Below the pieces are notes generated by a model. The model did not search any database, was not told where the DNA came from, and saw nothing but the letters and a program-made list of their open reading frames with translations. The position numbers and the translations under genes were made by a program. A stretch of DNA of 31,753 nt from IMG/VR virus record IMGVR_UViG_3300032232_000441, positions 1-31,753 of that record, one strand, 5' to 3'. This DNA comes from a virus. Its lineage: Duplodnaviria; Caudoviricetes. The first letter of the stretch is position 1. Each line of letters begins with the position of its first letter. Positions 143 through 25,400 of the stretch are shown here, piece after piece.

Positions 143-414
143 AAAGGAACCCAGTAGTGCGCGACCTGATTGCCAAGCCTAGGCGTAACGCAGGTAAGCA
201 TAGCGACAAGCGTGCCGTGATGATTGAGGACCTAACAAATGTTAGGGCTGAGTTGGAGCAGGAGGTACGGGACCTGATTGACGACATGCTGCCCAAAGCA
301 GACAAGGACGAAAGGCGAGCGGAGTTACTCGCAGACCTGTACCAACTAAAAGCGTTGATACAGAAAGCCAAGCAAGTGCAATCCGAAATAGAGGAGTGTG
401 ATGATGAGCAGTAA
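139..414 (+). CDS. hypothetical protein, helical/coiled-coil (91 aa)
   Basis: AGGAGG RBS upstream, ATGA coupling, ORF track. Confidence 0.75.
   Translation: MKRNPVVRDLIAKPRRNAGKHSDKRAVMIEDLTNVRAELEQEVRDLIDDMLPKADKDERRAELLADLYQLKALIQKAKQVQSEIEECDDEQ
231..246. repeat. 16-bp palindrome copy 1 (CCTAACAAATGTTAGG), intragenic
   Basis: Read directly; encodes LTNVR. Confidence 0.95.
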
Positions 415-496
415 TACATGGGACACGGTGATTGGGGTTATCTCAGCCGTGGGGCTGGTTGTTTTATTAACTCTTGTTGTGTTGGGGGTGCTATGA
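401..496 (+). CDS. small single-pass membrane protein (31 aa), below ORF-track cutoff
   Basis: GAGGAG at 391-396; MMSSNTWDTVIGVISAVGLVVLLTLVVLGVL*; TGA overlaps next ATG (493-496). Confidence 0.6.
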   Translation: MMSSNTWDTVIGVISAVGLVVLLTLVVLGVL

Positions 497-1569
497 GTTA
501 CGCAAGCTATGCAACGATCAACCCAATCAACAGCTACGAGGATGCAGTTAGGTACATCAACGCAACTGCACCGATAAGGAATAGCAAAAACATAATCCCG
601 CTCGGTGCTAGGCGGTATCACCAAGCGTTCAGTATACGGATGGGTGGTGGGCCATCGGTTGAATGCTTGCTGTACGACAACCCAATTGTGTCTTTCCATT
701 TTTCGGGGACGATCACCATCGCCTCAGGAATAAAGACAAGTCGTTGGGTGTACTCCGACGTGACCGAGGCTTACTTCATCAAGAATCTGCTACGCCACTA
801 CGTAGCCGACGCATCCATGCACAAGCGCACCCTGCGTATGACCTTGGTTGATGGGAGGAAGGTGTCATTGCGTGCGGGTGAGCCGCTAGTGGTTCAGCCA
901 AGTTCAGTTGGGGCGAAGAACCTAACATTTGTTAGTGAGGCGCGACTGCGTGGGTGGAAGCTAAACAGGAAAGTTTGCAATGACGTGCGTAAGCAGTACG
1001 GAGATTTCTACAGGTATGTGAAAGGGATGGTGTCGTTACGCAAGGAGACCGTCAAGGTCGCTCACTACCAGTACAAAGACACTATCGCCATTCATTTATC
1101 CGAGATGGATCTCGGTGTGCCGATGCGCCCAAGCCGACCTGCCCGACCAAGTAAACATTGGCTGACTAGCAAGCCGATGGTGGGGGAGGTGGTGGCGGAG
1201 CGGTGGAACCACGAGGCTAGCCTGTGGGAGAAGAAGATCACACATCTGTACGACGACTGGGTGGAGAACGTAAAGGGGCTCCTAACATTTGTTAGGGACG
1301 AGGGGGAGACTCAGCACGAGAGCTGGCACAAAGCCTTCCTCATGCTTGCGTACTCGGCACAGTTCAGGGAGATGTTCGTTGACGATAGGGACTTGAGCTT
1401 AGGTGGTACGTACCTGTGCAAAGCAGCAGATGTACTCAAGGTACTCGACGAGATCATCTTCAAGTGGCATAGCAAGGAGGTGTTTGAGTTAGTCACACTT
1501 GAGGTAGGGCAGGTGCCTAACCCAGAGTACGAGAGCTGGGTAGACAGGTATCCCAAAGAAAGCAGCTAA
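493..1569 (+). CDS. phage early hypothetical protein (about 358 aa)
   Basis: Long ORF; start moved from 418 to ATG 493 (GGGGGTG upstream, ATGA coupling with the small membrane ORF). Confidence 0.8.
   Translation: MSYASYATINPINSYEDAVRYINATAPIRNSKNIIPLGARRYHQAFSIRMGGGPSVECLLYDNPIVSFHFSGTITIASGIKTSRWVYSDVTEAYFIKNLLRHYVADASMHKRTLRMTLVDGRKVSLRAGEPLVVQPSSVGAKNLTFVSEARLRGWKLNRKVCNDVRKQYGDFYRYVKGMVSLRKETVKVAHYQYKDTIAIHLSEMDLGVPMRPSRPARPSKHWLTSKPMVGEVVAERWNHEASLWEKKITHLYDDWVENVKGLLTFVRDEGETQHESWHKAFLMLAYSAQFREMFVDDRDLSLGGTYLCKAADVLKVLDEIIFKWHSKEVFELVTLEVGQVPNPEYESWVDRYPKESS
921..936. repeat. 16-bp palindrome copy 2 (CCTAACATTTGTTAGT), intragenic
   Basis: Read directly; encodes LTFVS. Confidence 0.95.
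1281..1296. repeat. 16-bp palindrome copy 3 (CCTAACATTTGTTAGG), intragenic
   Basis: Read directly; encodes LTFVR. Confidence 0.95.
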
Positions 1570-1622
1570 ACACCCAACCCCCATACAGCCCACTTACGTG
1601 GTCTGAGTACTCAGCTAAAAAC

Positions 1623-1651
1623 TTGACATTGGGATAACTTTGTGGTATAAT
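1623..1651 (+). promoter_or_regulatory. sigma70-type promoter, perfect consensus with extended -10
   Basis: TTGACA (1623-1628), 17-bp spacer ending TGG, TATAAT (1646-1651), intergenic. Confidence 0.9.
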
Positions 1652-1699
1652 ATATACTCAAGTGGGAATTTGTTCGAAGCAGGTAGGGGTTAGCCCTTA

Positions 1700-1715
1700 C
1701 CTAACAATTGTTAGA
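1700..1715. repeat. 16-bp palindrome copy 4 (CCTAACAATTGTTAGA), in the leader after the consensus promoter
   Basis: Read directly. Confidence 0.95.
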
Positions 1716-1751
1716 TGTTCGTTAGTGTCGTTAGTTAATTAGGAGTTCAGC

Positions 1752-2825
1752 ATGGCTAAGCAAGAAATCAACTTTGGTAAGACCGTAACCCTGTCCGAGG
1801 CCGAGAGCCTCATCGCAAGTATCCGCAACAACCGTTTCCTGCTCGCTGGTGAGCCGGGGATCGGCAAGTCCTCAATGCTAAAGCGCCTCGCCGAGCGGGT
1901 CGGTATGGACTATGCCTACATCGATGTGCCTAACATGGACTTGGGTGACATCGCTATGCCGGTGGTCGATCACGTAACGAAGACCACTAAGTACTACCCC
2001 AACAGTCGGTTCAAGCTGGAGAACGGCAAGCCCGTGTGCATCATGCTCGACGAGTTCAGCAAGGGTGCGACTCCGGTGAAAAACATGCTCCACCCACTGC
2101 TAGAGGTGATGAACCCACGACTCGGTGATGTGTCGGTCCCTGATGGGTCGATCATCTTCTTGACGGGTAACCTTGAATCCGATGGCGTCAACGACTCGCT
2201 CCCTGCCCATACTCGGGCACGTGTTACTCGGGTTGTGGTGCGTAAACCTTCATCAGAAGAATGGCTCGACTGGGCGCAGGGTAAAGGGGGGATCGCCCCC
2301 GAAGTATGTGCGTGGGTGCATCGCTATCCGCAAGTGCTGGCAAGTTACCTCGATGGTGGTGCGGGGGATAACCCGTACATCTTCAACCCTAAGTCCGTCC
2401 AGAGCGCGTACGTATGCCCACGTACCCTTGAGCTGGCTAGCAACATCGTAGTTCAGCGCACCAGCAATTCCGTGGACGCAACGATTGCCGCCCTTACGGG
2501 TACGGTAGGTGAATCAGCGGCGAGGGATCTTCAAGCCTTCATCGCCTACGCCGACCAGCTCCCAGCGTGGGAGTCGATCATTGCCAATCCTAAGGGGGCG
2601 AACGTACCTGATATGCCCGGTGCATGCGCAGTTACTGTGTACGGTGCTATCGCTAAGGTACAGCGAGAGACTATGACTGCGTTCATGGAGTACTTGGGTC
2701 GCTTCAGTCCCGAGTGGCAAGCATCGTTCGCTATCAACATCGCCAAGAACAAAGCCAAGCAGAGCATTGCGTTTGGCAACAAGGCGTTTAGTGATTGGGT
2801 TGCGGCCAACCAAGACCTGCTTTGA
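1752..2825 (+). CDS. MoxR/CbbQ-like AAA+ ATPase
   Basis: Walker A GEPGIGKS, Walker B IMLDE, sensor-like TGN, PRT motif; AGGAG RBS; adjacent to a vWA gene. Confidence 0.85.
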   Translation: MAKQEINFGKTVTLSEAESLIASIRNNRFLLAGEPGIGKSSMLKRLAERVGMDYAYIDVPNMDLGDIAMPVVDHVTKTTKYYPNSRFKLENGKPVCIMLDEFSKGATPVKNMLHPLLEVMNPRLGDVSVPDGSIIFLTGNLESDGVNDSLPAHTRARVTRVVVRKPSSEEWLDWAQGKGGIAPEVCAWVHRYPQVLASYLDGGAGDNPYIFNPKSVQSAYVCPRTLELASNIVVQRTSNSVDATIAALTGTVGESAARDLQAFIAYADQLPAWESIIANPKGANVPDMPGACAVTVYGAIAKVQRETMTAFMEYLGRFSPEWQASFAINIAKNKAKQSIAFGNKAFSDWVAANQDLL

Positions 2826-2844
2826 TCAACACAACCAGAGGAGA

Positions 2845-2860
2845 ACTAACAAATGTTAGG
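2845..2860. repeat. 16-bp palindrome copy 5 (ACTAACAAATGTTAGG), over the ATG of the vWA gene
   Basis: Read directly. Confidence 0.95.
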
Positions 2861-4079
2861 TAACGCCATGACCGAGGAGCGCAAGCTCCAACGAGTGACT
2901 ATCACTCTCATACGTAACCCTAAGTTCGCATTGTTGAGCGGGCTGCTGATGGTCGGTAAGACTTACATCGCCGACAACGTCCCGACTGCCAAGACCAACG
3001 GGCGCGACGAGATGTATGGGCGTGCGTTTGTGAAAGGCTTGGACGAGAAGGAGTTGGCGTTCGTGCGATTGCACGAGGTGGGCCACAAGATGTACCGCCA
3101 CCTCACTACGTGGCGCAAGCTGCACAAGGAGAACCACAAGCTGGCGAACATGGCGTGCGACTACGTCATCAACATCATGCTGCGTGATCTTGACCCTACT
3201 GAAGAACACATCGCTATGCCCAAGTACAAGGATGGCCCTCACAAGGGGGAAATCATGGGGTTGGTCGATGAGCGGTTCCGGGGGATGAACTCCAAGCAGG
3301 TGTTCGACATTCTCAAGCAGGAGGGACGCGGCCAAGGTGAGGGTGGTGATGGTGACCCCAACGAGGAGGGGTTCGATGAGCATGGGTGGGACGAGGCCGA
3401 AGAACTCAGCGAGGACGAGGCTAAAGAACTTGAGCGAGAGATCGATCAAGCCATCCGTCAGGGGATCATCAACGACCGCAAGCTCAACGGTGATGAAGCG
3501 GGTGGACTGGCGCGTGACTTGGGCGAGATGCTCAAGCCTAAGGTGGACTGGCGTGAAGCCCTGCGTGAGTTCGTTCGTTCTGTGTGTGCTGGTAAGGACA
3601 ACTCAAGCTGGCGTAGACCCAACCGTAGGTTCATTGGCTCGGACGTATACCTGCCGACGATGATCTCGGAGCGGGTGGGTCGCATCCTTATCGCAGTAGA
3701 CACAAGCGGGTCTATCGGTGGGCCAGAACTCACCGCCTTCCTAACAGAAGTTAGCTCCATCTGCGATTCGGTTAGCCCCGAAGTCATCGATCTTATTTAC
3801 TGGGACTCACAGGTAGCAGCACATGAAATTTATACCGGCACTGATTCTTCTAATCTTGTTCAATCAACTCGACCGAAAGGTGGAGGAGGTACTTCGCCAT
3901 CTTGCATCACCCAGTATATGGGCAAGCATAAGCTCGACGCTGAATGCGCCGTGGTTCTGACCGATGGATACGTGGGTTCGGATTGGGGTGGTGCATGGCC
4001 GTGTCCGGTTCTGTGGTGCATCGTTGGAGATAACAAAGTGGTTGCCCCTGTTGGTAAAACTGTTCACGTGGAGAACTGA
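2853..4079 (+). CDS. metallopeptidase-like (HExxH) plus vWA domain protein, DUF2201-like
   Basis: LHEVGH, acidic linker, MIDAS DTSGS, GGGGT and LTDG motifs; start may be 2853 or 2868. Confidence 0.85.
   Translation: MLGNAMTEERKLQRVTITLIRNPKFALLSGLLMVGKTYIADNVPTAKTNGRDEMYGRAFVKGLDEKELAFVRLHEVGHKMYRHLTTWRKLHKENHKLANMACDYVINIMLRDLDPTEEHIAMPKYKDGPHKGEIMGLVDERFRGMNSKQVFDILKQEGRGQGEGGDGDPNEEGFDEHGWDEAEELSEDEAKELEREIDQAIRQGIINDRKLNGDEAGGLARDLGEMLKPKVDWREALREFVRSVCAGKDNSSWRRPNRRFIGSDVYLPTMISERVGRILIAVDTSGSIGGPELTAFLTEVSSICDSVSPEVIDLIYWDSQVAAHEIYTGTDSSNLVQSTRPKGGGGTSPSCITQYMGKHKLDAECAVVLTDGYVGSDWGGAWPCPVLWCIVGDNKVVAPVGKTVHVEN
3740..3755. repeat. degenerate palindrome copy 6 (CCTAACAGAAGTTAGC), intragenic
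   Basis: One core mismatch and a GA centre; same reading frame as the others (LTEVS). Confidence 0.55.
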
Positions 4080-4080
4080 A

Positions 4081-4314
4081 ATGTCGAAGATAACTGTTGA
4101 TCTGGGCTACAAGTCCTACATCCTTGACGCTAAAGATGCTCTTGTTCTTGCCGACATTGTCAGTAAGGCAGAGATGTACGAGGAGAAGTATCACGGCAAT
4201 GGCAGAGAGAACACGCACCACGTGTACGCCAATGACGAGCGTTTCATTATGCGCGTCTTGCCTGAGTCTTTGTACAACATGGCAAAGCTGGCGGGTAAGC
4301 CAGAGAAGTCCTAA
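4081..4314 (+). CDS. hypothetical protein (77 aa)
   Basis: ATG just after the vWA stop with GGAG upstream; C-terminal part of ORF 3964..4314. Confidence 0.75.
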   Translation: MSKITVDLGYKSYILDAKDALVLADIVSKAEMYEEKYHGNGRENTHHVYANDERFIMRVLPESLYNMAKLAGKPEKS

Positions 4315-4325
4315 CAATTGTTAGT
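4310..4325. repeat. 16-bp palindrome copy 7 (CCTAACAATTGTTAGT), supplies a TAA stop
   Basis: Read directly. Confidence 0.95.
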
Positions 4326-4355
4326 TGTGTTCGTAATTAAACCTAGGAGTAGAGC

Positions 4356-5219
4356 ATGAGCATTGCATCATCAGCAGTATTGGTAAGCCTCAACATCAGC
4401 GTGTGGCCCGCATCGAAGATCGACCGTGAGGTTACCGACCAAGTCAACAACGACAATTCGGCTACGCACGACGCTTCGCAGACCAAGAAGAACCTGTTTG
4501 CAGGTACGCACTTACGTAAGAACATCGAGAAGTTCGCAGCCAAGTGCCGTGTCACTAACATCAAGTTAACCCTACCGTGGGCAGACAAGGGTGATCGCTT
4601 GCTTGCAACCAAGTTGTTCATGGAGCACAAGGGCTTCATTAACAAAGCCGAGGCTGAGTTCAATGGGTTGTGCAACATGTTCTTTACTGGGTACGACCAG
4701 CTTGTGCTGAGTGCGCCGACTCGGTTGGGCAAGATGTATAAGGCCGAGGACTATCCACCACTCGATGAGGTGCGTGCGAAGTTTGGGTTCCGCTACGTGT
4801 ACTCACCCCTGCCCGAGGCGGGCGACTTCCGACTCGACGTTAACAACGAGGAGTTGGAGTCCATTAAAGCTACGTATGAGCAAGACTTCAATAGCCGCAT
4901 GGTCGATGCGATGCGTGAGCCGTGGGAGCGACTTCACACTACGCTGGTAGGTATTAGCGAGAAGCTCACCGATGAGCCCGTTTCTGATGACGATGGTCCG
5001 AAGCGGCGGTATCACGAGTCGCTGATTACCAATGCCCAAGAACTGTGTGGCCTCTTGACTAAGCTCAACATTACTAATGATCCGAAGCTGGAAGAAGCTC
5101 GCCGACAGCTAGAGGTTACGTTAGTCAATGCAGACATTGAAGTGATCAAAGAATCACCGATGGTGCGTGAGTCGATGAAGGCCAAGGTCGATTCGATCCT
5201 CAGCAAGTTCGACTGGTAA
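4356..5219 (+). CDS. DUF3150-like phage protein
   Basis: 287 aa, AGGAG RBS; motifs TLPWADKGDRLL, DYPPLDEVRAKF, LNITNDPKL resemble proteins found beside phage AAA/vWA pairs (family assignment from memory). Confidence 0.6.
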   Translation: MSIASSAVLVSLNISVWPASKIDREVTDQVNNDNSATHDASQTKKNLFAGTHLRKNIEKFAAKCRVTNIKLTLPWADKGDRLLATKLFMEHKGFINKAEAEFNGLCNMFFTGYDQLVLSAPTRLGKMYKAEDYPPLDEVRAKFGFRYVYSPLPEAGDFRLDVNNEELESIKATYEQDFNSRMVDAMREPWERLHTTLVGISEKLTDEPVSDDDGPKRRYHESLITNAQELCGLLTKLNITNDPKLEEARRQLEVTLVNADIEVIKESPMVRESMKAKVDSILSKFDW

Positions 5220-5230
5220 GTTCACCCAAG

Positions 5231-5246
5231 CCTAACAAATGTAAGG
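5231..5246. repeat. palindrome copy 8 (CCTAACAAATGTAAGG), overlaps an RBS
   Basis: One mismatch, which creates TAAGGAG. Confidence 0.85.
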
Positions 5247-5254
5247 AGTAGAGC

Positions 5255-6136
5255 ATGGCATCAATCAATCAATACGACTACGACATCAACTGCAACTTGG
5301 TTGGCCTACCTAACGTATCCCTAATCCAAGACAAAAAACCACTGGACACCACCAAGTACAATTTCCAAACCAACTTGTGTATCTACAAGGTGCTGCACCC
5401 ACTGATAGGTAAGCCGTGGACGTTCTTACCCCAGCACACGAGAGGGGGTAGGAGCGACAAGATAGATGGCAAAGAGGTTCGGGTCATCACCGACTTTTTC
5501 ATCTACGAAAGTAGCGAGTACTTGGGTAGCGTTGGTATTTCTTACGTTGGTAGTGGGTACAAAGTAGTCGTAGATAACCATCGCATAACCGATGGTCGCA
5601 AGAGCGGTAGGGCTTTCCGTACCGAGAACTTGGAGCGGGCTACGCTAACCATACGCAAGAACTTCTACCGTATGCCTGACGCCGAGCGGGTCGAGAAGGT
5701 CATGACTGAAGTGGGCAACCAGCTCAACTCTGCTCATTGGGATACGCAGAGGGAGCTTACGAATAGGGAGCGGTCGTTGTTTGATAAGGCTAAGGACTTC
5801 GCCGTTTCCAACATGGAGCAGTACATACGTCAGTATCCTGAAAGAGGGACCTATGTTGAATTGTTTGAAAAGGCCAAGCTGGATCACGAGACGACTGGGC
5901 ACATCAGTAAGATGAAAGACTACGACAAACTTATACTTGTGCTACGAGAAAGTGAGCATTACATTGTCAAGGTTGGTGGTACAATAAATTCGATGACTGA
6001 TGACGCGCTATCAGAAGACTTACGAGCCAAGCTCGGCATGCTCAAGCTGGTGGAGAACGGTCAGTGTATCGAGGGTATGGGGTTTCGAGGTGACGAGAAC
6101 ACCTTCCTGATCACACCCGCAGTTATCAATATCTAA
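5255..6136 (+). CDS. phage hypothetical protein (293 aa)
   Basis: Long ORF with AAGGAG RBS. Confidence 0.8.
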   Translation: MASINQYDYDINCNLVGLPNVSLIQDKKPLDTTKYNFQTNLCIYKVLHPLIGKPWTFLPQHTRGGRSDKIDGKEVRVITDFFIYESSEYLGSVGISYVGSGYKVVVDNHRITDGRKSGRAFRTENLERATLTIRKNFYRMPDAERVEKVMTEVGNQLNSAHWDTQRELTNRERSLFDKAKDFAVSNMEQYIRQYPERGTYVELFEKAKLDHETTGHISKMKDYDKLILVLRESEHYIVKVGGTINSMTDDALSEDLRAKLGMLKLVENGQCIEGMGFRGDENTFLITPAVINI

Positions 6137-6137
6137 A

Positions 6138-6153
6138 GCTAACAAATGTTAGG
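6138..6153. repeat. 16-bp palindrome copy 9 (GCTAACAAATGTTAGG), overlaps an RBS
   Basis: Read directly. Confidence 0.95.
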
Positions 6154-6161
6154 AGAGAGTC

Positions 6162-6332
6162 ATGGATGTACGGATGCTAAAGCATGTGCGAGAACTGTTC
6201 GCTGTGGACTACGTGCCTATTCACACACAGCGGCACAACCAAAAACAATGGGTGAGAGCGGTTCGCAGATTGGGTGATCGCTGGATCTTAGCCACTCCAA
6301 TCCCTAAGCGGAAGGAGCCGTATGGAGCTTAG
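6162..6332 (+). CDS. small basic phage protein (56 aa), below ORF-track cutoff
   Basis: AGGAG RBS at 6151; MDVRMLKHVRELFAVDYVPIHTQRHNQKQWVRAVRRLGDRWILATPIPKRKEPYGA*; fills the gap between neighbours. Confidence 0.75.
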   Translation: MDVRMLKHVRELFAVDYVPIHTQRHNQKQWVRAVRRLGDRWILATPIPKRKEPYGA

Positions 6333-6525
6333 TAAACCAAAACGAAAGGGGCGTGGTCTTGGCAAGAAGCCAGCTCTTTTTGGTACGAGCTTGCGTTTGA
6401 GTAAGGAGGTGTTGGATTACTTCAATCTGCACTACCCACACAACAAGCAAGCCAAGATGCGTGAAATTCTTGCCGACTACGTCCGTAATCAAATTAATGG
6501 AGTCCGTAATGGAACCGAATGTTAA
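6322..6525 (+). CDS. BrnA-antitoxin-like ribbon-helix-helix DNA-binding protein
   Basis: Basic KGRG..KK arm followed by TSLRLSKEVLDYF...QAKMREIL, the strand-helix-helix pattern of BrnA/CopG-type proteins; AAGGAG RBS. Confidence 0.6.
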   Translation: MELSKPKRKGRGLGKKPALFGTSLRLSKEVLDYFNLHYPHNKQAKMREILADYVRNQINGVRNGTEC

Positions 6526-7009
6526 GCCTAAGAAGCTCACCATGAGCGCGAAGATCCGTGAATACCTCCGTACTAACCCTGATGAGGAACCCAAGAAAGC
6601 AGCCGAGGCGCTGGGGGTAAAGGTTTCTTTGGTATATGGAGTCAAGAAGTACGACAAGGATCGTGCGGCTAGGCTCAAGGTCAGGAAGAAAGCGGCAATA
6701 AGTAAACACTTGCCCGTATACGACAAGCTCACCGAGCTGCTCAAGCGTCCTGATTCGTTGATCAAACTTCCAGTCGTTAAGCCTGTCGTTGATATGGTTA
6801 ACCATCCCCCTCACTACACGCTGGGTGGGATCGAGACCATTGATTTTATTCAGGCTAAGCTGACCAAGGAGGAGTTCTTGGGCTATCTCAAGGGTAACGT
6901 ACTCAAGTACGGCTCACGTATTGGCAACAAGGGCGCGGCGATCCTCGACGCTGGCAAGCTGGCGTGGTACGCCAAGAAACTACAGGATGTGCTGAGCACC
7001 TCTTCCTAA
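6509..7009 (+). CDS. HTH-like N-terminus fused to a DUF3310 (T7 gp1.7-like nucleotide kinase) domain
   Basis: N-term KIREYL...KKAAEALGVKVSLVYGVK; C-term DMVNHPPHY..GGIETIDFI...GYLKGNVLKY..R...KG; GGAG before ATG 6509. Confidence 0.75.
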   Translation: MEPNVKPKKLTMSAKIREYLRTNPDEEPKKAAEALGVKVSLVYGVKKYDKDRAARLKVRKKAAISKHLPVYDKLTELLKRPDSLIKLPVVKPVVDMVNHPPHYTLGGIETIDFIQAKLTKEEFLGYLKGNVLKYGSRIGNKGAAILDAGKLAWYAKKLQDVLSTSS

Positions 7010-7020
7010 CATTTGTTAGG
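7005..7020. repeat. 16-bp palindrome copy 10 (CCTAACATTTGTTAGG), supplies a TAA stop, before the terminator
   Basis: Read directly. Confidence 0.95.
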
Positions 7021-7030
7021 TCTCCCTTGA

Positions 7031-7059
7031 AGGCCGAGCCAAGTGCTCGGTCTTTTTTT
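7031..7059 (+). terminator. intrinsic terminator closing the early block
   Basis: AGGCCGAGC-caagt-GCTCGGTCT stem followed by a T run. Confidence 0.85.
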
Positions 7060-7117
7060 GTCCGCGCTTTCGCGGCTAAACCAGTTCCCGCCCCCTCACG
7101 TTCTCCCATGTTCCCCC

Positions 7118-7145
7118 TTTACATTGTCCAGTTATGTGGTATAGT
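7118..7145 (+). promoter_or_regulatory. sigma70-type promoter for the replication block
   Basis: TTTACA, 16 bp, TG-extended TATAGT; lies after the terminator and before RBS GAGGAG/ATG 7171. Confidence 0.7.
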
Positions 7146-7170
7146 AAGGGGACTCAAAGAGGAGTTTACT

Positions 7171-7503
7171 ATGCACTCGGATCAGTCAGCGGAAGTAGAT
7201 GAAGACGGTAGGCTAGGGTGTCCTAAGTGCGGTGATATCTACCTACACCAAGGCAGCACCACGATATTTGAGCGACGTGAGGATGACGACTACGTCACGG
7301 TGATTGCACAAAACAACGCAGAAGTTACTGCTTCTAAGTTCCTCAACGCCGACACATGCAACCCAAGTTCTCGCCGACATGGGATGCTGATTGAGTTCAC
7401 CTGCGAGGAATGCCACTCAGTACCCCCCGAGCAAGAAGCACCCGCACCGTTTCGCTTGGCTATCTATCAGCACAAGGGGACTACGTTCGTGGAGTGGTGG
7501 TGA
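7171..7503 (+). CDS. putative Zn-binding hypothetical protein (110 aa)
   Basis: GAGGAG RBS; CPKC and CEECH pairs; start reassigned from 6964. Confidence 0.75.
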   Translation: MHSDQSAEVDEDGRLGCPKCGDIYLHQGSTTIFERREDDDYVTVIAQNNAEVTASKFLNADTCNPSSRRHGMLIEFTCEECHSVPPEQEAPAPFRLAIYQHKGTTFVEWW

Positions 7504-7790
7504 TGGCAGCAACCCCCGAAGCCAAGGTCAAGGCTAAGATCAAAGCCCTCCTTGAGAAGCACAGTGTGTACTACGCTATGCCTATTGGAACTATGTACGG
7601 CAACAGTGGCGTACCTGACTTCCTCTGCTGTATGCGGGGTCAGTTCCTAGCCATCGAAGCCAAGGCAGGTAAAGGTACGACGACAGCCCTGCAAGACAAA
7701 CACCTACGCACAATCCGCGAATGCGGGGGCATGGCGCTGGTGATCAACGAGAGCAACTTAAACGACCTAGCCCAAATACTGGAGCCGTAA
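7503..7790 (+). CDS. VRR-NUC family nuclease / Holliday junction resolvase-like
   Basis: TPEAKVK, GVPDFL, FLAIEAK, T.LQ motifs; TGATG coupling. Confidence 0.85.
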   Translation: MAATPEAKVKAKIKALLEKHSVYYAMPIGTMYGNSGVPDFLCCMRGQFLAIEAKAGKGTTTALQDKHLRTIRECGGMALVINESNLNDLAQILEP

Positions 7791-8095
7791 TGAGCATTTC
7801 GAGCGGAGTTCAAGCAATCATCAACCGTATGGCGTCACACCCGGAGGAGTTCTTTGGGGACAATAGCCCTCAAGCCTCGCGGTGGAACTTTATCTACAAG
7901 GACAACTTCAAGGACATCATGACCGAGCCTGAGAAGGCGGCTATCTACGACGCGCTGAAGGTGGTGCGGCGTCAGCAGTTTGAGACGCTGGTTATGACTA
8001 CGTTGCTACTGCAAGACCAAGATGAAGAAGCGCAAGAAAGCCCCCTGCAAGATCTTAGATTGCCAAATTTTGGCAAGAAGCCAAAAACCAAATGA
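7790..8095 (+). CDS. hypothetical protein (101 aa)
   Basis: TAATG coupling upstream and ATGA coupling to the polymerase. Confidence 0.7.
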   Translation: MSISSGVQAIINRMASHPEEFFGDNSPQASRWNFIYKDNFKDIMTEPEKAAIYDALKVVRRQQFETLVMTTLLLQDQDEEAQESPLQDLRLPNFGKKPKTK

Positions 8096-9924
8096 AAGTT
8101 CTCACCATAGATTTTGAAACCTATTACGACAACAAGTTTTCACTGAGCAAACTGACTACGGAAGAATACGTAAGGGACGAGCAGTTTGAGGTGATTGGTG
8201 TGTCGGTGCAGGTGGACACCGATGAGCCGCAGTGGTTTTCAGGTACGCACGCGCAGACAAAGGCTTTCCTTGAGCAATACAACTTTGAAGAGAACTTGGC
8301 GCTCGCCCACAACGCTATGTTCGATGCTGCTATCTTGGGCTGGAGCTTTGGTGTTAACCCTAGGGGTTGGCTCGATACTCTTAGCATGGCTCGCGCTATA
8401 CACGGTACTGAGGTGGGTGGGAGTCTTAAAACCCTAGCCGAGTACTACGATATCGGTGTGAAGGGTGATGAGGTTATTGCTGCTCAGGGTAAACGCAAGG
8501 CCGACTTCACCGACGTTGAACTGGCTCGGTACGGTGAGTACTGCAAGAACGACACCGCGCTCACCTACAAGCTCTTCCAGTGCATGTCCGATGGGTTCCC
8601 GAAGGTTGAGCTTCGCTTGATTGACCTGACGATCAAGATGTTCTCCGAGCCTGTGTTGCAGCTCAACTCCAATCTACTTGAGGGACACCTAACAAATGTT
8701 AGGGCGATGAAAGATGTATTGATGCAGACCCTAGAAGAGCAAGGGTATACGCGAGAAGATCTAATGAGCAACCCCAAGCTCGCTGAGATTTTGACCCTAC
8801 GAAATGTAGTACCGCCGACTAAGATTAGCGCTGCTACTGACAAGAAGACTTGGGCGTTCTCCAAGACCGACGAAGGATTTAAAGCTCTGCTTGAGCACGA
8901 AGATCCAGTTGTCCAATCCGTAGTAGCCGCAAGACTTGGTGTGAAATCCACGCTTGAAGAAACCCGGACCGAGCGGTTCATCGCCATCGCTCAACGTGGG
9001 CCTATGCCAGTTCCCCTCCGATACTACGCCGCCCATACCGGACGGTGGGGTGGTGACGACAAGCTCAACCTTCAGAACCTTCCCCGCAACAGCCCGTTAA
9101 AGCACGCAATCGTTGCCCCAGTCGGCTATGTCATATTGGACGCGGACTCAGCCCAGATCGAGGCGCGGATCGTTGCGTGGCTGGCTGGTCAGGAGGATCT
9201 GTTAACTGCGTTTACTAATGGCGAGGACGTGTACAAAATCATGGCCTCTTCTATATACGACAAGCCAATCGTAGACATCACCAAGCAAGAGCGGTTCGTA
9301 GGCAAGACCACAATTCTCGGCGCGGGGTACGGAATGGGGGCTACGAAGTTCCAAACCCAACTTAAAAACTTTGGTGTTGATACGCCCATTGAGGAATGTA
9401 AACGCATTATTGACGTATACCGTAAGACCTACCCCAAGATCCCTGAGCTATGGGGTGACGCTCACGACGCGCTGACGGACATGATGGGTAATAAAGTTTC
9501 GGCCCTAGGCCGCGACGGGCTACTTAAAATTGAGGGCAAAAACGGAATCAGGTTGCCCAACGATCTTCTTATTAAGTACCCCAACATTCGCAAAGTACAG
9601 CAGGAAGACGGCAAAAGCGAACTGCTCTATGACACCAAGAAGGGTCGGTCGTTTATACCCACACGGATATACGGCGGGAAGGTGGTGGAGAACCTATGCC
9701 AAGCACTCGCTCGCATAGTAATTGGTGGGCAGATGCTAATGATTGCCAAGAAGTACCGCGTGGTCATGACTGTGCATGATGCCGTGGCGTGCATTGTTCC
9801 AGAAGGAGAGGCAGAACTAGCTAAGGAATACGTTGAATTATGTATGCGCTTACGTCCGGAGTGGGCGCAAGATCTACCGCTTAATTGTGAATCGGGCTAC
9901 GGCCATAGTTATGGAGATTGTTAA
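8092..9924 (+). CDS. polA: phage DNA polymerase, family A, with 3'-5' exonuclease
   Basis: Exo I DFET, Exo II HNAMFD, Exo III YCKND; HTGRW, NLQNLP, motif A DSAQIEAR, motif B KTTILGAGYG, motif C VHDA. Confidence 0.95.
   Translation: MKVLTIDFETYYDNKFSLSKLTTEEYVRDEQFEVIGVSVQVDTDEPQWFSGTHAQTKAFLEQYNFEENLALAHNAMFDAAILGWSFGVNPRGWLDTLSMARAIHGTEVGGSLKTLAEYYDIGVKGDEVIAAQGKRKADFTDVELARYGEYCKNDTALTYKLFQCMSDGFPKVELRLIDLTIKMFSEPVLQLNSNLLEGHLTNVRAMKDVLMQTLEEQGYTREDLMSNPKLAEILTLRNVVPPTKISAATDKKTWAFSKTDEGFKALLEHEDPVVQSVVAARLGVKSTLEETRTERFIAIAQRGPMPVPLRYYAAHTGRWGGDDKLNLQNLPRNSPLKHAIVAPVGYVILDADSAQIEARIVAWLAGQEDLLTAFTNGEDVYKIMASSIYDKPIVDITKQERFVGKTTILGAGYGMGATKFQTQLKNFGVDTPIEECKRIIDVYRKTYPKIPELWGDAHDALTDMMGNKVSALGRDGLLKIEGKNGIRLPNDLLIKYPNIRKVQQEDGKSELLYDTKKGRSFIPTRIYGGKVVENLCQALARIVIGGQMLMIAKKYRVVMTVHDAVACIVPEGEAELAKEYVELCMRLRPEWAQDLPLNCESGYGHSYGDC
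8688..8703. repeat. 16-bp palindrome copy 11 (CCTAACAAATGTTAGG), inside the DNA polymerase gene
   Basis: Read directly; encodes LTNVR. Confidence 0.95.
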
Positions 9925-16016: not shown

Positions 16017-16253
16017 ATGAGTTACGGATACAGCCAACGATTAGCCGAAGCTTGTAGTAAAGCGCAATCTGATTCAGTTGGCATGATGCTTGGACGTTTG
16101 TGCATTGAGCGAAGTATTCCTGTTAATAACATAGCCGAAAGGTTTGGTGTATCCCGCACCACAGTTTACAACTGGTTCTGGGGTGTGCATCAGCCTAAGT
16201 CTTCGTTGAAGCAGCAGATACTTCCGTTCATTGAGAAGCTAACCAAGCAGTAA
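16017..16253 (+). CDS. Cro/XRE-like helix-turn-helix protein
   Basis: VNNIAERFGVSRTTVYNWFWG..QP; GAGGA RBS. Confidence 0.85.
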   Translation: MSYGYSQRLAEACSKAQSDSVGMMLGRLCIERSIPVNNIAERFGVSRTTVYNWFWGVHQPKSSLKQQILPFIEKLTKQ

Positions 16254-19379: not shown

Positions 19380-19407
19380 AACTCCCGGCTGGACCGGGAG
19401 TTTTTTT
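19380..19407 (+). terminator. intrinsic terminator where the two arms converge
   Basis: AACTCCCGG-ctgga-CCGGGAGTT followed by a T run; abuts the stop codon of the minus-strand giant gene. Confidence 0.85.
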
Positions 19408-22400
19408 ATTCCCCGCGCTTGAGTGTTTTCTCTAGGTTGTCGAGTGCATCGCGCATCACCCTAGCGTTCTTCTCAGTAAGCGCAACACCGGCACGCTCAG
19501 ACCCCCGCAGCTCAGCCCGTTTGAGGATTGAGTTGTAAATATCCTCCTCATCAATAGCGTTCTCGGGGTTCTTACCGTTGAACTTGGGGAGTTCGTTGGC
19601 AATCAACGCATCAAACCGGTCGTAGTTGTCGGTCTTTTGCGCATTTTTGTGCTCAATATTTAAGCGCTTGAGCAAGGTAGCCCGCTCATTCATGACCCGC
19701 TGCTCTACACCACTTAGCTTAAATGCACTTGCTTGAGCAGCAGCAACACGGTCGGGGCGGAAACCAAAAAACTGACCAAACAGTTCGCCATTAGTTAATG
19801 CCTCTTTGGGGATAAGTTCAGATCCACGTGAACTTTCAACTCCCTCTTTACGATATTTATCCCACACCGCTATGTTACGTAGAGCTGAGGGGCTAGCTTT
19901 CTCAATTGCTTTTTGGTAGTCACCCAAGGCGTATGCTTCATAAGCATCAATCATTGAGAGCCCTAAGCTGGCTGTTGGGCCACCAAATTTATCAATTACA
20001 AAAGCGATGAAGCTCTCCCGCGCTGTCTTCATATCTTTGGTATCACGACCCCACAAGTCATTTAATCCAATACGTGAGGCAATGTCCCAACCAGAAATAG
20101 CGTTAATCGGACCTCGATCAATGATGTCAGCTAAGGTGACGTTGCCAATACTTATGTGCCCAAACGTTTCGGGCAGGAACACGGTACGGAACCAAGTTTC
20201 AAAGTCTTTATCTTTTAGTTCATCAGGCAAGTCATCGTCATCAGCCATCTGCTTCCACGCCCAGCCAAGTAGTCCCATGATAGGACTAAAGAAGAGCATG
20301 TTGGATGCACCGGCCAACATTAGCGATGCGCCCATAATCCCAAAGAATTTGGTTGCAGCTTCCTTTTTACCTTCCGCATTCAAGAAAGGCATCATTCTCT
20401 TGAGGCTAGTAAGCGCAAGCAAAGTCATTTGCAACGGGTACATCTTGAACTGGAAGGCAATTCTTCCGAGCCCCTTCTGCATCCAGCGTGGGCGGTTCTC
20501 AATGTTGTAGTCACCAAGCGATTCGTTTACGTCCGATACTGCTTGATCAATTGCTTCATCATTAGTAAGCCCACGCTGCTTACCCAGTCGGTAAGAGGCA
20601 AGATACAGAGCCTCACGCGAGAGCCGCTCGGTATGGTGCATCAACCCACCAATAGCTAAATTAGCTAGGTTTTTACCTGTGCCGACTATGCCTTCTAAAT
20701 TAACATTAGGTGCGCGGGCGTAGCCCCAGACTAAAGAGGAGTACGTGGAATCCTGCACCCCACGTTCAGTCATCTGACGAACTGCTTCGCGTTCGTCGTC
20801 TGGGAGCTTTTCGTTGTTCGCTAGGCTTGGCGCTTTGATGGAAGTAGTACCATCAAGGTTACGTCGCATAATTCCATATTGGTTGACAAACGTCATCATG
20901 CGACCAATTTCCAGCGCGGCACCGGACACATTTCCGTGATTAGCACCAAGCACCCATATGCCGGAAATCAAAGGGCTAAATGGCTGTATCAACGCCGACG
21001 ATGCACTAGACAGATACCAGAGATACGAGAGCTTGTTAGCTGCGCCAGCTACAGCATCAGCAATTCCAGCTTCACGCCCGGACAACGCCGACTCAACTCT
21101 ACGCTGGGCTTCACGCACAATAGGAGTTAGTTCTGGGCGGTCTGACAGTAACGACCTAGCCGCAGTAAGATTGTTGCGTAGGATCGGAGCGTATTTAAGG
21201 CGAGACAGTTGAGTCGCCATCTTCGATGCAGTAGTAGCCGTGTTCCTGACCAAGTCGGTACTGAAACCAGCAATCCCTTTACGATGCACAAACATCTTGC
21301 GGAACGTCTGCTCGGGCATCGTCTGCAAATAGATCTGATAAACCGCGTCCTTCAACCCTTCCTTAACGTCGGACTCGGTCAGGTCTTGGCTATCAATCGC
21401 ATCAAAAAACTCTTTGAGCATGTTGCTCGCATCACGCGAAGCAGTACGCAATGAATTTATATCGTCGCCGACTCTGACTTCACGGTTTGCGTTTACTGAA
21501 CGTAACTGTTTGGCAAACTTATTGCGCTCCCGGCGAGACTCAAACATAAAGAACTGTCGGCTCGGCCCAGCACCAGTAGCCACCCAGAAAGTTCCACGGC
21601 GAACTAACGGGAAGAAAGGTCTAATTGATCCTTCACCTTCGTAAGCGAGTCGGATGGTAGCCATCAGTTTGGCCTTTGCTTCGTCGCTTATACCTTCTAG
21701 ATTGCTGATCTGGTCATCGAGCAGCAGACGATACAGGTCATGCACCCGTTCGTAGTACTCACGTAGCAGTTTGTACGCTTCTTTACCAGCGGGGCTTAGT
21801 GCCCTATAAGCTGCATCAAGTGTGGGTGAGCGTTCTTGCGCTGCAACAATCGACGGGTCAATGCGAGCAAGCGTAGTTTGCAGAACTAGATCTTCAACCT
21901 TTTTTCTTTGGTCTGGCTCAGCGTTGAATGTTTTCTGTAGCGCGGAGATTATCTGCTCTGCCCCCTCCAAGAACTTGGTAGACATACCAGTCATGTTCTG
22001 GAGATTCTTGTGCATATCGTTGAGCATGGGTACTTCTTTACCCATCCACTTAGCCAAGAAGTCAAACGTAGGTAGGCGAACCATCACCTCGCGCTGAGCG
22101 TTCTTCGCCCCTTCCCACATTGCCGGGAATATCTCTAGCATTTGTTTGGGGTCACGGGCAAGCTGCATAAGCTTCACCCCACGAGCTTCTTCCCCAGCAC
22201 GTGATTGCTCTACTGTGATCTGCGCTTTCCTAACCGCGTCATCGATCTCTTCAGCACTTCGTTTGGCTTGGGCGGATACTTGCGTACTTGTACTTTCCAG
22301 CGGGGTGGCTTCCTCTGGTGCTTCCATAAGGTTATGGACTGCAAGGATGAGGTCGGATAGAGCGTTTACTTCACTCTCTTTAATCCCAAAGAAGCTGCGG

Positions 22401-25400
22401 ATATTTTGCACAAACGTAGGGAACAGGTACGTATCTTCATCAAACCCTTCGGTTGATTTCAGGAACTCCTGCATCCGGTCGTCGGTCATGCCGTAGGCAA
22501 CGAACTCCCGAGGATCATCAAAGATATCTCCGTAGTTAGCCAGAGCGGATATTTCTTTGGGTAATTCATCGACCGTCTCTAACTCATTGAACTTGTACCC
22601 AGTAAAGTTCATGATCTCAATCAAGCGCTCAAACGACTTGACTAGCTTAGATTCGAGGTGGATACCTTTATCAATATATTCTTTGGCTAGAGCAATCTTG
22701 TAGTTGGTAGCCCCGTGCAGTAGCTCATGCAGCACCGTAGTGTTATTAGCACCTTGGGACTCACCAAAGGAAGCACCGCGAACGAAGATGGAGCGAATTT
22801 TTGTTTTGTAGTTCTCAATGTACAGCGCACGGGAACGCGCCCATTGCAGTGCATTTTTTGGGCTACGTAATTGGTCAGGTACCGTATCCCCTTCCTCAAC
22901 TACAGTAAATCTTATGTTACCAATTGAACTACGCAGTCGGTTAGCAATAGCTTTTTGCGCCGCAGTGCCAGTCCTAATAATATGGAACAACGCTTTTAAC
23001 CCACTAGTGATACCACTGTATGCTGGGTCTACTGGCTCGGATATAGCTTTACCAGCCGCAGGTAGCGTTTCTTCCCTTAGGTTTACTCTGCTGACAAGCT
23101 CCATCCCCTTTTTAATGTCAGCCTTCTCCTGCTCAGTAATGCCGGGGCTGTTGAGCAGGTCTTTAATACGTTTGTGAATCGGTCGGCCACGGACGATTGG
23201 GTTGGCATCGAGCTTTAGCAGCTCACGTATAGCGGCCTTTCTTGCTGCCCGCTTATCGTCCTCAGCTTCAGCAACTGCTTCGTCGGTCTCAAACGCATCT
23301 TCATTTACGGGAGTAAGCGCATCCTTTAGGTCGGTGGTCAGTTTCTGAACAGCGCGAACTATCTGAGCAAGCGTAGCCCGTTCAGGGGCGTTTTGTTTTT
23401 TCTTTTCCGCTTTTTGTTCTTCAGTCAGCGGCTTGCGCCCACGTTTACCCGCAGGTTGTTGGCTCGCAGCTTTAGCCGCTTTCTGTTCTTCAGTTAGCGG
23501 TGGCCGACCCCGTTTTTTGGGAGCTTCGGCTGCGGCTGGAGCGGGAGGAACAGCAGTTTGAGTTGCGTTGTCCCAAGTATATACACCGTCAGCAACGTGT
23601 TCGCCCGCAAATCTTTTATCGGCAATATCACGAGCTTCTTCTTCCGTCTCAAAAACCCGTTCAACAGCGGGAATACCACGGTCTAACCAATCAAGTCCAA
23701 AGCCACCATCCTCGTACTTAGTTATCCGCAGTGTTGGAGGGGTGGTCTTGGATTGTTTTTTAACTGCTTCGTCAAACGCTTTTAAAGCTACGTCGGTGTA
23801 ATCTCTTTTGCCTTGCTCAACAAGAGCATCTGCAAGGTTTTGACGGTACTCGTCAATAGCTTCTTGTAACGACTCATGAGCATTTCGTTGGTCAAAAGCC
23901 GTACTTACGTATTGACTTGCCATATCGCGTGCGTCGGTTACACGCGCTTCTTCAGCGGCTTGCGCTGCTGCTTGTAATTTATCCGCACCCTTTTGGAATA
24001 AAGCTTCAGCTCTTAAAATTACATTTGGGTTTGTGATACCTCTTTCCCGCATCGTGTCCCGAAGGTTTTCAAAATGCGTGTCAATTGAGTTTTGTAACCC
24101 ACCCCAAAACTCTTGCTGGTCTTCAGCGTCAACGAGCAAATTCTTTGCAAACTTGATGGGGTCAAACTTTTCTTCTACTGGAGTGGGTCGTTCTCCACGA
24201 ATTAAAGCAATTGTCTCTTCTGGGTTAGTTGCAATCCCTGCTTTAAGCCCAGCAAATGCAATCGTATCAACGGCGTTGTTTAGCTCTTGTGGGATGTCCT
24301 GCCAAGTTAACTTTCCTTTTTTGGCGAGTTTGGCTTCTAAAGCACCAGCCCAAAGATCACGATCTTCCGGATCAAGTGACGCTACGCCACTTTGAATTTG
24401 CGACTTTGTTTCTTGGTTTAGTGGAGCGGGCTTTGTTGCTTCTCCAGCAGGAGGCTGTCCAGCATCTTCTGAAGTAGGTACCACTCCGCTTGGCTCAGCT
24501 CCACTAGGTCCTCCGGGGGGGACTCCTGTATCGGAGACGCCAGCCACGCCAGCGCCTTCTCCACTTGGGGTAACGACAGTTCCTGTATCACGTTGTTCTC
24601 CTGCTCCAACTAAAGAATGCCCTCTATACCCAAGCGGCTCAAAAGAATACGCCAACAACTCTGCGTCAGATTTGTCTTTTGCAAACGCAGGTTTGAATTC
24701 TCTAGGAGCTTCATCGGGGGCAATAATGAGTGCGCCTCCGTCAGGAAGCCGTGCAACTCTTACCGAGAAAGTCCCGTTGTCTTCCGTATCAACTTGGTAA
24801 TCTTCTGATGATTTAAATGGGCTACGTCTTTTTGGAGGTTTAGTTGCTGGCGTTTCAACTTTAGGAGCTTCCGCTTCAGCAAGCGCGTCGGCTTCGTCTT
24901 GCTCTTTTATCTGCGCTTCTGCCCGTTGGCGAGCTTCTAGTGGTGGCACACCGGCAGCAATAAATTCATCAGCAACGTCAGCAACCCGCTTCTGGGCTTC
25001 AGAGACTGGGCCCCGCTTGGTGACTTCTGCTTGCAGTAGGTTGACCAGCTCTTCGTTGCGCTCTTCTTCCGGTTTATTTAGTTGAAACTCCAACGTAGCA
25101 CGCACCGCAGCATCGGGCCATGTATCTACCGGAGGCAGTGCATTCTCAGGAGTTCTACCAACCAACTCGGCAATGCGACGAGCTTCCGACATTGGAAAGC
25201 CCATTTTGTTTAGCCGAGCGACTTCCGCTTCAATGTCCCTCTTAGGTGCTGGTGGCGGAGGGGGCGGTGGCGCACCCTCTTCCCTAAATACAGGTTCTTT
25301 ACGCCCAGCGGGGACAATTGTTTCCCATCCTTCACCGATTGTGGGTTCAGTAGGTTTGGTAGGGGCAGCAGGTGGTGTAATCCCCGGCACTCGCCCAGCT

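Follow-up and report, generated by a model that had tools for sequence, protein, structure and literature searches.

Dispersed-operator systems are already known. In the Streptomyces phage phiC31, which is temperate and possesses an integrase, the repressor c has conserved inverted repeats that form dispersed symmetric operators over the early region, and in MatP/matS and ParB/parS dispersed short palindromes bound by dimers mark one region. The stoperators of the Cluster A phages (L5, Bxb1) number 20-30 per genome, are mostly situated outside promoters and block elongation, and their motifs diverge together with the repressors, which is a precedent for repressor-motif co-variation (PMC6550527). 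The SAS/ESAS elements of Cluster K are described as 11-19 repeats per genome of unknown function (PMC3203893). The present analysis concerns an array of 16-base pair (bp) palindromes in the virus record IMGVR_UViG_3300032232_000441, the whole of which, a truncated phage contig of 31,753 nucleotides (nt), constitutes the window. This array is real, selected and family-wide, and a strong candidate partner, the first early gene (gp1), lies outside the window; across the family the code is swappable, and the motif of the window represents just one of its variants, which goes beyond what a single window could show.

As in the Cluster A system, the sites are numerous and mostly not at promoters, and the motif co-varies with a phage protein. 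Complete genomes of the present family have 9-23 exact-pattern sites each, few of them near promoters, which is slightly fewer than the 20-30 of Cluster A; the Cluster A site is described as oriented with transcription, whereas here it is palindromic, 13-17 bp long, and its spacer varies; the array is confined to the early arm; and the candidate protein is without a family match, is the product of the first early gene and occupies a slot that several families fill. While Cluster A phages are temperate, a Pfam scan of 141 open reading frames (ORFs) of two complete genomes (G019 and G014) detected no integrase, ParA or ParB, although a diverged gene could escape it; these were drawn from 160 listed ORFs, the 19 omitted being already identified core genes, and the list excluded ORFs below 55 amino acids (aa), above 1500 aa or spanning fetch borders. 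Given the palindromic sites, the lack of a detected integrase or ParA and a protein without an assigned family, the arrays appear to work like the Cluster A stoperator system without being a member of it. With regard to phiC31 repressor c, PF25746 is an Atlas lead for gp1 at 0.79 only, and gp1 shows no homology in Pfam or PHROG scans. The TGACA variant of the palindrome resembles the matS consensus, but gp1 has no MatP or ParB family match in Pfam, fold searches being uninformative, and in the present family the variants are phage-specific and the sites tied to gene boundaries. The Cluster K repeats, too, are associated with gene starts over a portion of the genome; in the available part of their description they are asymmetric, include the ribosome-binding site and are given no co-varying protein (PMC3203893), whereas the present sites are palindromic, with 35% at gene starts and 25% inside genes.

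Purifying selection on the sites and their placement

A scan of the whole window recovered 11 matches to CTAACA-NN-TGTTAG with at most one mismatch, all within 231-8703 and at precisely the coordinates listed in an initial annotation of this DNA. Nine cores are exact (16-mers starting at 231, 921, 1281, 1700, 2845, 4310, 6138, 7005 and 8688) and two, at 3740 and 5231, have one mismatch; the centres are AA in five sites, TT in three, AT in two and GA in one. The annotation had further claimed a copy number beyond chance and an absence from the remaining window, and both are borne out: 100 dinucleotide-shuffled versions of the sequence contained 0.08 copies on average and never more than 1, and there is no further 16-mer match at two mismatches or fewer, the next best (22134) having three. 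Its placement of the array at the early end of the genome has to be corrected: the window is a truncated contig and therefore position 231 is not a genome end, and a relative (G001/L166) continues upstream with 7 additional sites and the first early gene.

The palindrome sites are under purifying selection, and the array occurs family-wide. G001 has each of the 11 cores in the same form as the window, without a single difference over their 132 bases, as against differences at 122 of 660 flanking bases and at 1236 of 8957 (14%) overall, the AAA ATPase (hereafter AAA) being 97% identical; the Fisher tests on site conservation take no account of relatedness. Conservation at synonymous positions, which had been proposed as a check, is supported both by this comparison and by the homologs of intragenic sites. 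De novo scanning of 80 loci selected by AAA, which were not dereplicated, recovered at least four copies of one palindrome in 71 of them by our count, in phage-specific variants including TAACA-N1-TGTTA, TAACA-N2-TGTTA, TAACA-N3-TGTTA and TGACA-N2-TGTCA (N1 to N3 denoting the spacer), in addition to variants of the flanks. Intergenic sites convert in place via 1-bp indels, and intragenic sites arise through clustered substitutions within otherwise conserved sequence, with no breakpoint. Inside ORFs the palindrome gives stops in two of the three frames, leaving LT(N/F/E)V(R/S) as the sole readable peptide, and intragenic sites recur at the few positions that tolerate this forced peptide and track phage type. 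Thus, the site in the AAA gene is present in 14 of 16 N1 phages versus 8 of 24 N2 phages, with nine non-carriers encoding the same ASNIVR by other codons, and the site in the VWA gene tracks phage type at 18/20 versus 1/31; three TGACA sites at the VWA position alter the peptide to VSDICQ.

It is extremely unlikely that the sites are host transcription-factor boxes, a host repeat or chance occurrences. The point in favor of a host box is that the scan covered bacterial genomes at large rather than a designated host; in 596 Gb of GTDB bacterial genomes, one 16-mer variant is present in an estimated ~230 stretches (from 35 of 64 parts) versus 277 expected by chance, which is no excess, near-identical phages use differing variants that track a phage gene, and chance is opposed by the shuffle control given above. 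The TAAC core hardly varies over the 357 N2 and 261 N1 sites compared, and departures from it are alike on both arms; in the N2 sites a wobble-compatible change is seen in 4 of 357, versus pair-breaking C-to-A changes in 62 and 49 of 357 on the two arms. This symmetric variation and the absence of a G.U signature support, at the level of sequence, the annotation's proposal of a dimer-type site in double-stranded DNA rather than an RNA element. Location at gene junctions, variable loop length and a centre that, read on the sense strand, is more often AA than TT (201 versus 72) might alternatively point to RNA hairpins with a role in processing or translation, or to short recombination joints that shuffle small early genes. 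The rarity of wobble-compatible changes and the acquisition of sites by conserved genes through clustered substitutions without a breakpoint make this very unlikely, and the AA bias is possibly due to A followed by TG forming start codons.

The family comprises freshwater phages with genomes of about 63 kb, and an estimated ~870 stretches of IMG/VR have one 14-mer, many of them chance singletons. Layout was counted in ten genomes that are at least 96% complete, six of them with terminal repeats. In their common layout terS and the early arm point in opposite directions, and the early arm holds 167 of the 170 exact-pattern sites, from about 230-460 nt off terS to the polymerase gene, in agreement with the confinement to the early arm first noticed in the window. 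The array usually ends at the DUF3310 stop and has its upstream limit just before the gp1 promoter. By our own ORF calls gene starts account for 35% of the sites (8% in the background), stops for 17% (6%), other intergenic positions for 23% (12%) and gene interiors for 25% (74%). For the window, the annotation's statement that no site overlaps a -35/-10 element holds, while its description of half of the sites as intragenic gives way to 6 of 11 at gene junctions and 5 of 11 inside ORFs. The median gap between sites in the ten genomes is 609 bp, and the gaps lack 10.5-bp phasing (mean cosine 0.04).

Co-variation of the palindrome with gp1

The search for a gene co-varying with the motif, which the annotation had suggested, leads to gp1. 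This first early gene encodes 155-195 aa (about 165) and was found in 47 copies; that of G001 lies 4 kb past the left end of the window with sites on both sides of it. In a FastTree tree of 39 dereplicated units, gp1 requires 6 changes of motif label, versus a mean of 15.7 and a minimum of 11 upon shuffling, and in all 12 comparisons made on identical rows the other gene needs more changes (9 for the adjacent terS, versus 6). In closely related pairs with differing motifs gp1 stands apart: G004 (N1) and G026 (a mixed array with TGACA beside gp1) are 97% identical in AAA and 83% in terS but only 26% in gp1; G004 and L186 (TGACA-N2) are 99% and 89% identical in AAA and terS but only 21% in gp1; and G003 (N3) and G007 (N2) show 87% identity in AAA, 84% in the ribbon-helix-helix-like (RHH) gene and 86% in terS versus 27% in gp1. 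G001 and G019, both N2, are 64% identical in AAA and 52% in gp1. The mixed array of G026 is interleaved, with 10 TAACA-N1, 8 TGACA-N2 and 2 hybrid sites, as is expected if old and new sites coexist in time, and the sites flanking its gp1 are of the TGACA type, in line with its gp1 clade.

An independent test used 79 new loci chosen by terL and not dereplicated. In 20 of them gp1 falls below 90% identity to the training set, and for 15 of these 20 the spacer was correctly predicted from the gp1 subfamily (by our tally, two of the 15 on only 1-2 sites). Arrays of at least four copies were present, among the 34 of 79 loci with at least 2.5 kb upstream, in 20 of 20 with gp1 as first gene, 5 of 5 with a second first-gene family and 1 of 9 with others. 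The second family pairs with TTCATAC- or TTCGTAC-N1 palindromes, and a divergent gp1 (L537) with TCACA-N1. A swap of the first early gene goes along with a change of palindrome, so gp1 likely encodes a new DNA-binding protein, and from these comparisons it is probably the protein that binds the sites. An alternative candidate binder is a 67-aa RHH-like protein encoded in the window, which follows the motif less well than gp1. Two first-gene paralogs per genome occur in G021, L462 and L489.

Analysis of gp1 itself recovered 334 homologs, and none of the 120 listed carries a Pfam domain. There was no consistent Pfam or PHROG match, nothing at E below 0.029 in a PDB sequence search and nothing at E<=0.001 in Foldseek, and in a fold comparison of whole models only (VIA) the best matches were generic helical proteins, with Z-scores of 6.8 and 5.6. 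AlphaFold models of gp1 (pLDDT 86, pTM 0.57) and of the second first-gene family (pLDDT 84, pTM 0.52) both display a helical N-domain, a low-confidence flexible linker and a C-terminal helix pair. In gp1 a helix with conserved W91/R93 follows residues that differ between the motif groups, and may be the recognition helix. Pairwise comparison of the two families gave E-values of 0.001-0.004 at a probability of only 8-19%, and therefore their homology is unproven. An origin of gp1 from the core-binding domain of tyrosine recombinases is unsupported by sequence and fold searches, and DUF3102 was rejected as a relative, the Atlas leads (0.81, 0.84) being under the 0.9 mark.

Cultured relatives and models for the function of the array

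The closest cultured phages by terminase, at 49-58% identity, are 023Pt_psg01, DSL-LC04, HTVC027P/HTVC023P and MinM2, that is, podoviruses of the HTVC023P type and MinM2/Pag-Yong1/Pra-JY27; no cultured phage has a gp1 match. No array was found in the parts examined of HTVC027P (30 of 58 kb), 023Pt_psg01 (30 of 60) and DSL-LC04 (50 of 62), nor in 33.7 of 58.7 kb of the N4-like Halo_KS_7, which has AAA-VWA. MinM2 and RHph_TM27A have the AAA-VWA module in common with the family and possess dispersed palindromes of their own, of other sequence. MinM2 (L427/L431, OQ594354.1) has 37 copies of GGTTCAG-N-CTGAACC at up to two mismatches, 17 of them exact (a count without shuffle control), which are densest between early genes just ahead of ribosome-binding sites and also occur in late genes; a 39% identical paralog of its first early gene is present. 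RHph_TM27A (L432, 35 of 61 kb) has 28 copies of GTTACC-N6-GGTAAC at up to one mismatch, versus 0-1 in shuffles. No description of the motif or of these two arrays was found in the open-access literature, most subscription papers being outside the scope of the search. By annotation only, the RHph_TM27A record has a 1027-aa "putative integrase" and an attL.

The best-fitting model appears to be a symmetric stoperator, in which the palindromes are operators of gp1 that mediate stoperator-like silencing of early genes with swappable specificity, a reading to which we would give slightly better than an even chance; given that gp1 binds, the step from binding to silencing of early transcription is a probable one. 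Here gp1 would be made first, from a host sigma-70 promoter, accumulate and bind the sites as a predicted dimer. Sites just past promoters could then block initiation or escape, and those at gene junctions or inside genes could act as roadblocks to elongation, such that silencing would either end the early phase or maintain a non-integrated quiet state. Co-infecting kin with matching sites would be silenced too, which would create pressure to swap gp1 for one of different specificity, and after such a swap 1-bp indels and point changes would rebuild the array, with mixed arrays as a result.

The fairly regular cover, with its 609-bp median gap, the modeled linker and C-terminal helix pair, which could bridge DNA, the genome-wide arrays in MinM2 (37 sites at up to two mismatches) and RHph_TM27A (28 in 35 kb) and Atlas leads that, under 0.9, include a Borrelia plasmid partition protein all suggest a different role, namely that gp1 binds the array structurally in the manner of MatP/matS or ParB/parS, bridging, compacting, shielding or tethering the early DNA with little effect on transcription. 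This is unlikely: starts are enriched four-fold and stops three-fold, the array ends at a terminator/promoter boundary, ParA and ParB had no Pfam match in the scan described above, expression of gp1 must come after DNA entry, and a structural role offers no clear reason why specificity swaps rapidly. The related model of the initial annotation, parS/matS-like sites for DNA entry or protection, is less favored because the sites are concentrated where genes start and stop, the array ends at that boundary and the co-varying gene belongs to the early rather than the virion module. As a further alternative, gp1 might load at the sites as an activator or anti-terminator and thereby drive the long early operon: the position of the first site, 25-60 bp upstream of the gp1 -35, is that of an activator, and the early-arm sites of MinM2 come after a stop and ahead of the following ribosome-binding site. 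We consider this decidedly improbable, since many sites are on ATGs, ribosome-binding sites or coding sequence with no adjoining promoter match, and the promoters are already near consensus.

Several observations weigh against silencing by gp1 as set out above. The same first site is upstream of the gp1 -35 and not on it; the palindrome gives transcription no polarity, in contrast to the L5 stoperators; and gp1 is without a recognizable DNA-binding fold. The margin of the gp1 tree over those of RHH, w5255 and PolA is one change, and the trees are FastTree only, with the 79-aa helix-turn-helix (HTH) gene at 16017-16253 outside the set. Of the 20 new loci, 2 (L466, L480) contradict the predicted spacer, 1 is mixed and 2 with divergent gp1s carry different half-sites; G021 breaks the gp1-spacer rule, and two quite different gp1 subfamilies share the TAACA half-site. 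Part of the co-variation may be linkage because gp1 is physically linked to the sites. Finally, the arrays of MinM2 and RHph_TM27A extend into late genes, and their first genes have no detectable alignment to gp1.

If silencing by gp1 is nevertheless its function, gp1 would switch off early genes and distinguish kin from rivals. A further-reaching version, possible but doubtful, is that of a self-identity system in non-integrating phages, with an interchangeable first gene that belongs to a new DNA-binding superfamily and a matching barcode written 10-35 times into the phage's own DNA: co-infecting kin would be silenced or sequestered, and a gene swap would force rewriting of the barcode, even via amino-acid changes in core enzymes. 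The differing arrays that go with gp1, with the second family, with MinM2 and with RHph_TM27A would then each be a code of its own within one widespread phage-versus-phage mechanism. The family shows how entire cis-regulatory arrays would be rebuilt within coding genes following a swap of the putative regulator, and it suggests dispersed-operator control and immunity-like diversification beyond temperate, integrase-bearing phages. The family offers a natural library of protein-site pairs from an unannotated family, in which spacer lengths run from 0 to 3 bp and five or more half-sites occur; each site variant is tied to a protein variant, and therefore the recognition code is directly testable. 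The phages are common in IMG/VR, and the cultured RHph_TM27A and MinM2, with analogous arrays, make experiments possible.

Features of the window and further observations

In the window a + strand arm converges on a - strand virion arm. The + arm genes encode an AAA ATPase, a DUF2201 VWA-peptidase, DUF3150-like and DUF3310 proteins, a VRR-NUC-like nuclease, polymerase A, a helicase, an HTH protein and a primase. The palindromes are given without a strand in the following list.

231..246, palindrome site within a 91-aa ORF (139-414)
921..936, palindrome site within a conserved ~350-aa early gene
1281..1296, palindrome site within the same ~350-aa gene as site 921
1623..1651, + strand, sigma-70-type promoter match (12/12, extended -10; consensus match only) upstream of the AAA gene
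1700..1715, palindrome site between this promoter and the AAA start, starting 49 nt past the -10
1752..2825, + strand, MoxR-like AAA ATPase, a family core gene
2845..2860, palindrome site covering the first ATG of the DUF2201 gene
2853..4079, + strand, DUF2201 metallopeptidase-VWA protein
3740..3755, one-mismatch site within the DUF2201 gene, identical in G001 and L167
4310..4325, palindrome site on the stop codon of ORF 4081-4314
4356..5219, + strand, DUF3150-like protein, 28% identical to a MinM2 gene annotated so
5231..5246, site with one mismatch that overlaps the ribosome-binding site of ORF 5255-6136
6138..6153, palindrome site past the stop at 6136 that overlaps the ribosome-binding site of ORF 6162
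6322..6525, + strand, 67-aa protein, RHH-like by eye and without a Pfam match
7005..7020, palindrome site on the DUF3310 stop, just ahead of the terminator; the usual final array site in relatives
7029..7055, + strand, intrinsic terminator-like hairpin
7118..7145, + strand, next sigma-70-type promoter match, for replication genes
8092..9924, + strand, family A DNA polymerase
8688..8703, palindrome site within the polymerase gene, present in 2 of 31 homologs
16017-16253, 79-aa HTH gene

Regarding possible hosts, a 6.5-kb fragment of the phage family (L327) is binned in a beta-proteobacterial metagenome-assembled genome (MAG), which is a weak hint, and distant DUF3150-like homologs (27-29%) are mostly on Burkholderiales plasmids. 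A check for prophages found neither AAA nor gp1 in 401 genomes around the MAG of L327; it had no positive control and is not counted as evidence. In a Bacilli MAG (L330) a longer repeat containing the 16-mer occurs in 3 copies ~1 kb apart, with no phage-family gene nearby.

Other repeats are present in the early arms of relatives. L199 has the direct repeat CTTACAATACA in 13 copies, and L510 and L492, in which the first gene is of another kind and a palindrome array is lacking, have three copies each of AAGTTCTTACAA and GTAGTACAAACA, respectively. Weak or unusual variants among L169, L170, L201, L241 and L511 include GGAACA-N1 (2-3 copies), the asymmetric TAACAATATTA (7 copies), CTTATA-N2 (3 copies) and CCGACA-N3 (4 copies, with a 221-aa first gene). 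The terS-gp1 intergenic region of 17 G records has recurring G-rich blocks (GGGGGTGGGG, GGGACTCC, CCGGGGGGTG) 60-350 nt from terS, which could possibly be packaging or terminus signals. OQ594354.1, OL906435.1 and PP438419.1 are one 65,014-bp phage of 68-70% GC deposited from three cyanobacterial hosts, an assignment that looks doubtful. The region 19406-26593 of the window encodes a protein of 2395 aa that is probably ejected and shows LPD39 matches as well as DarB-like antirestriction matches.

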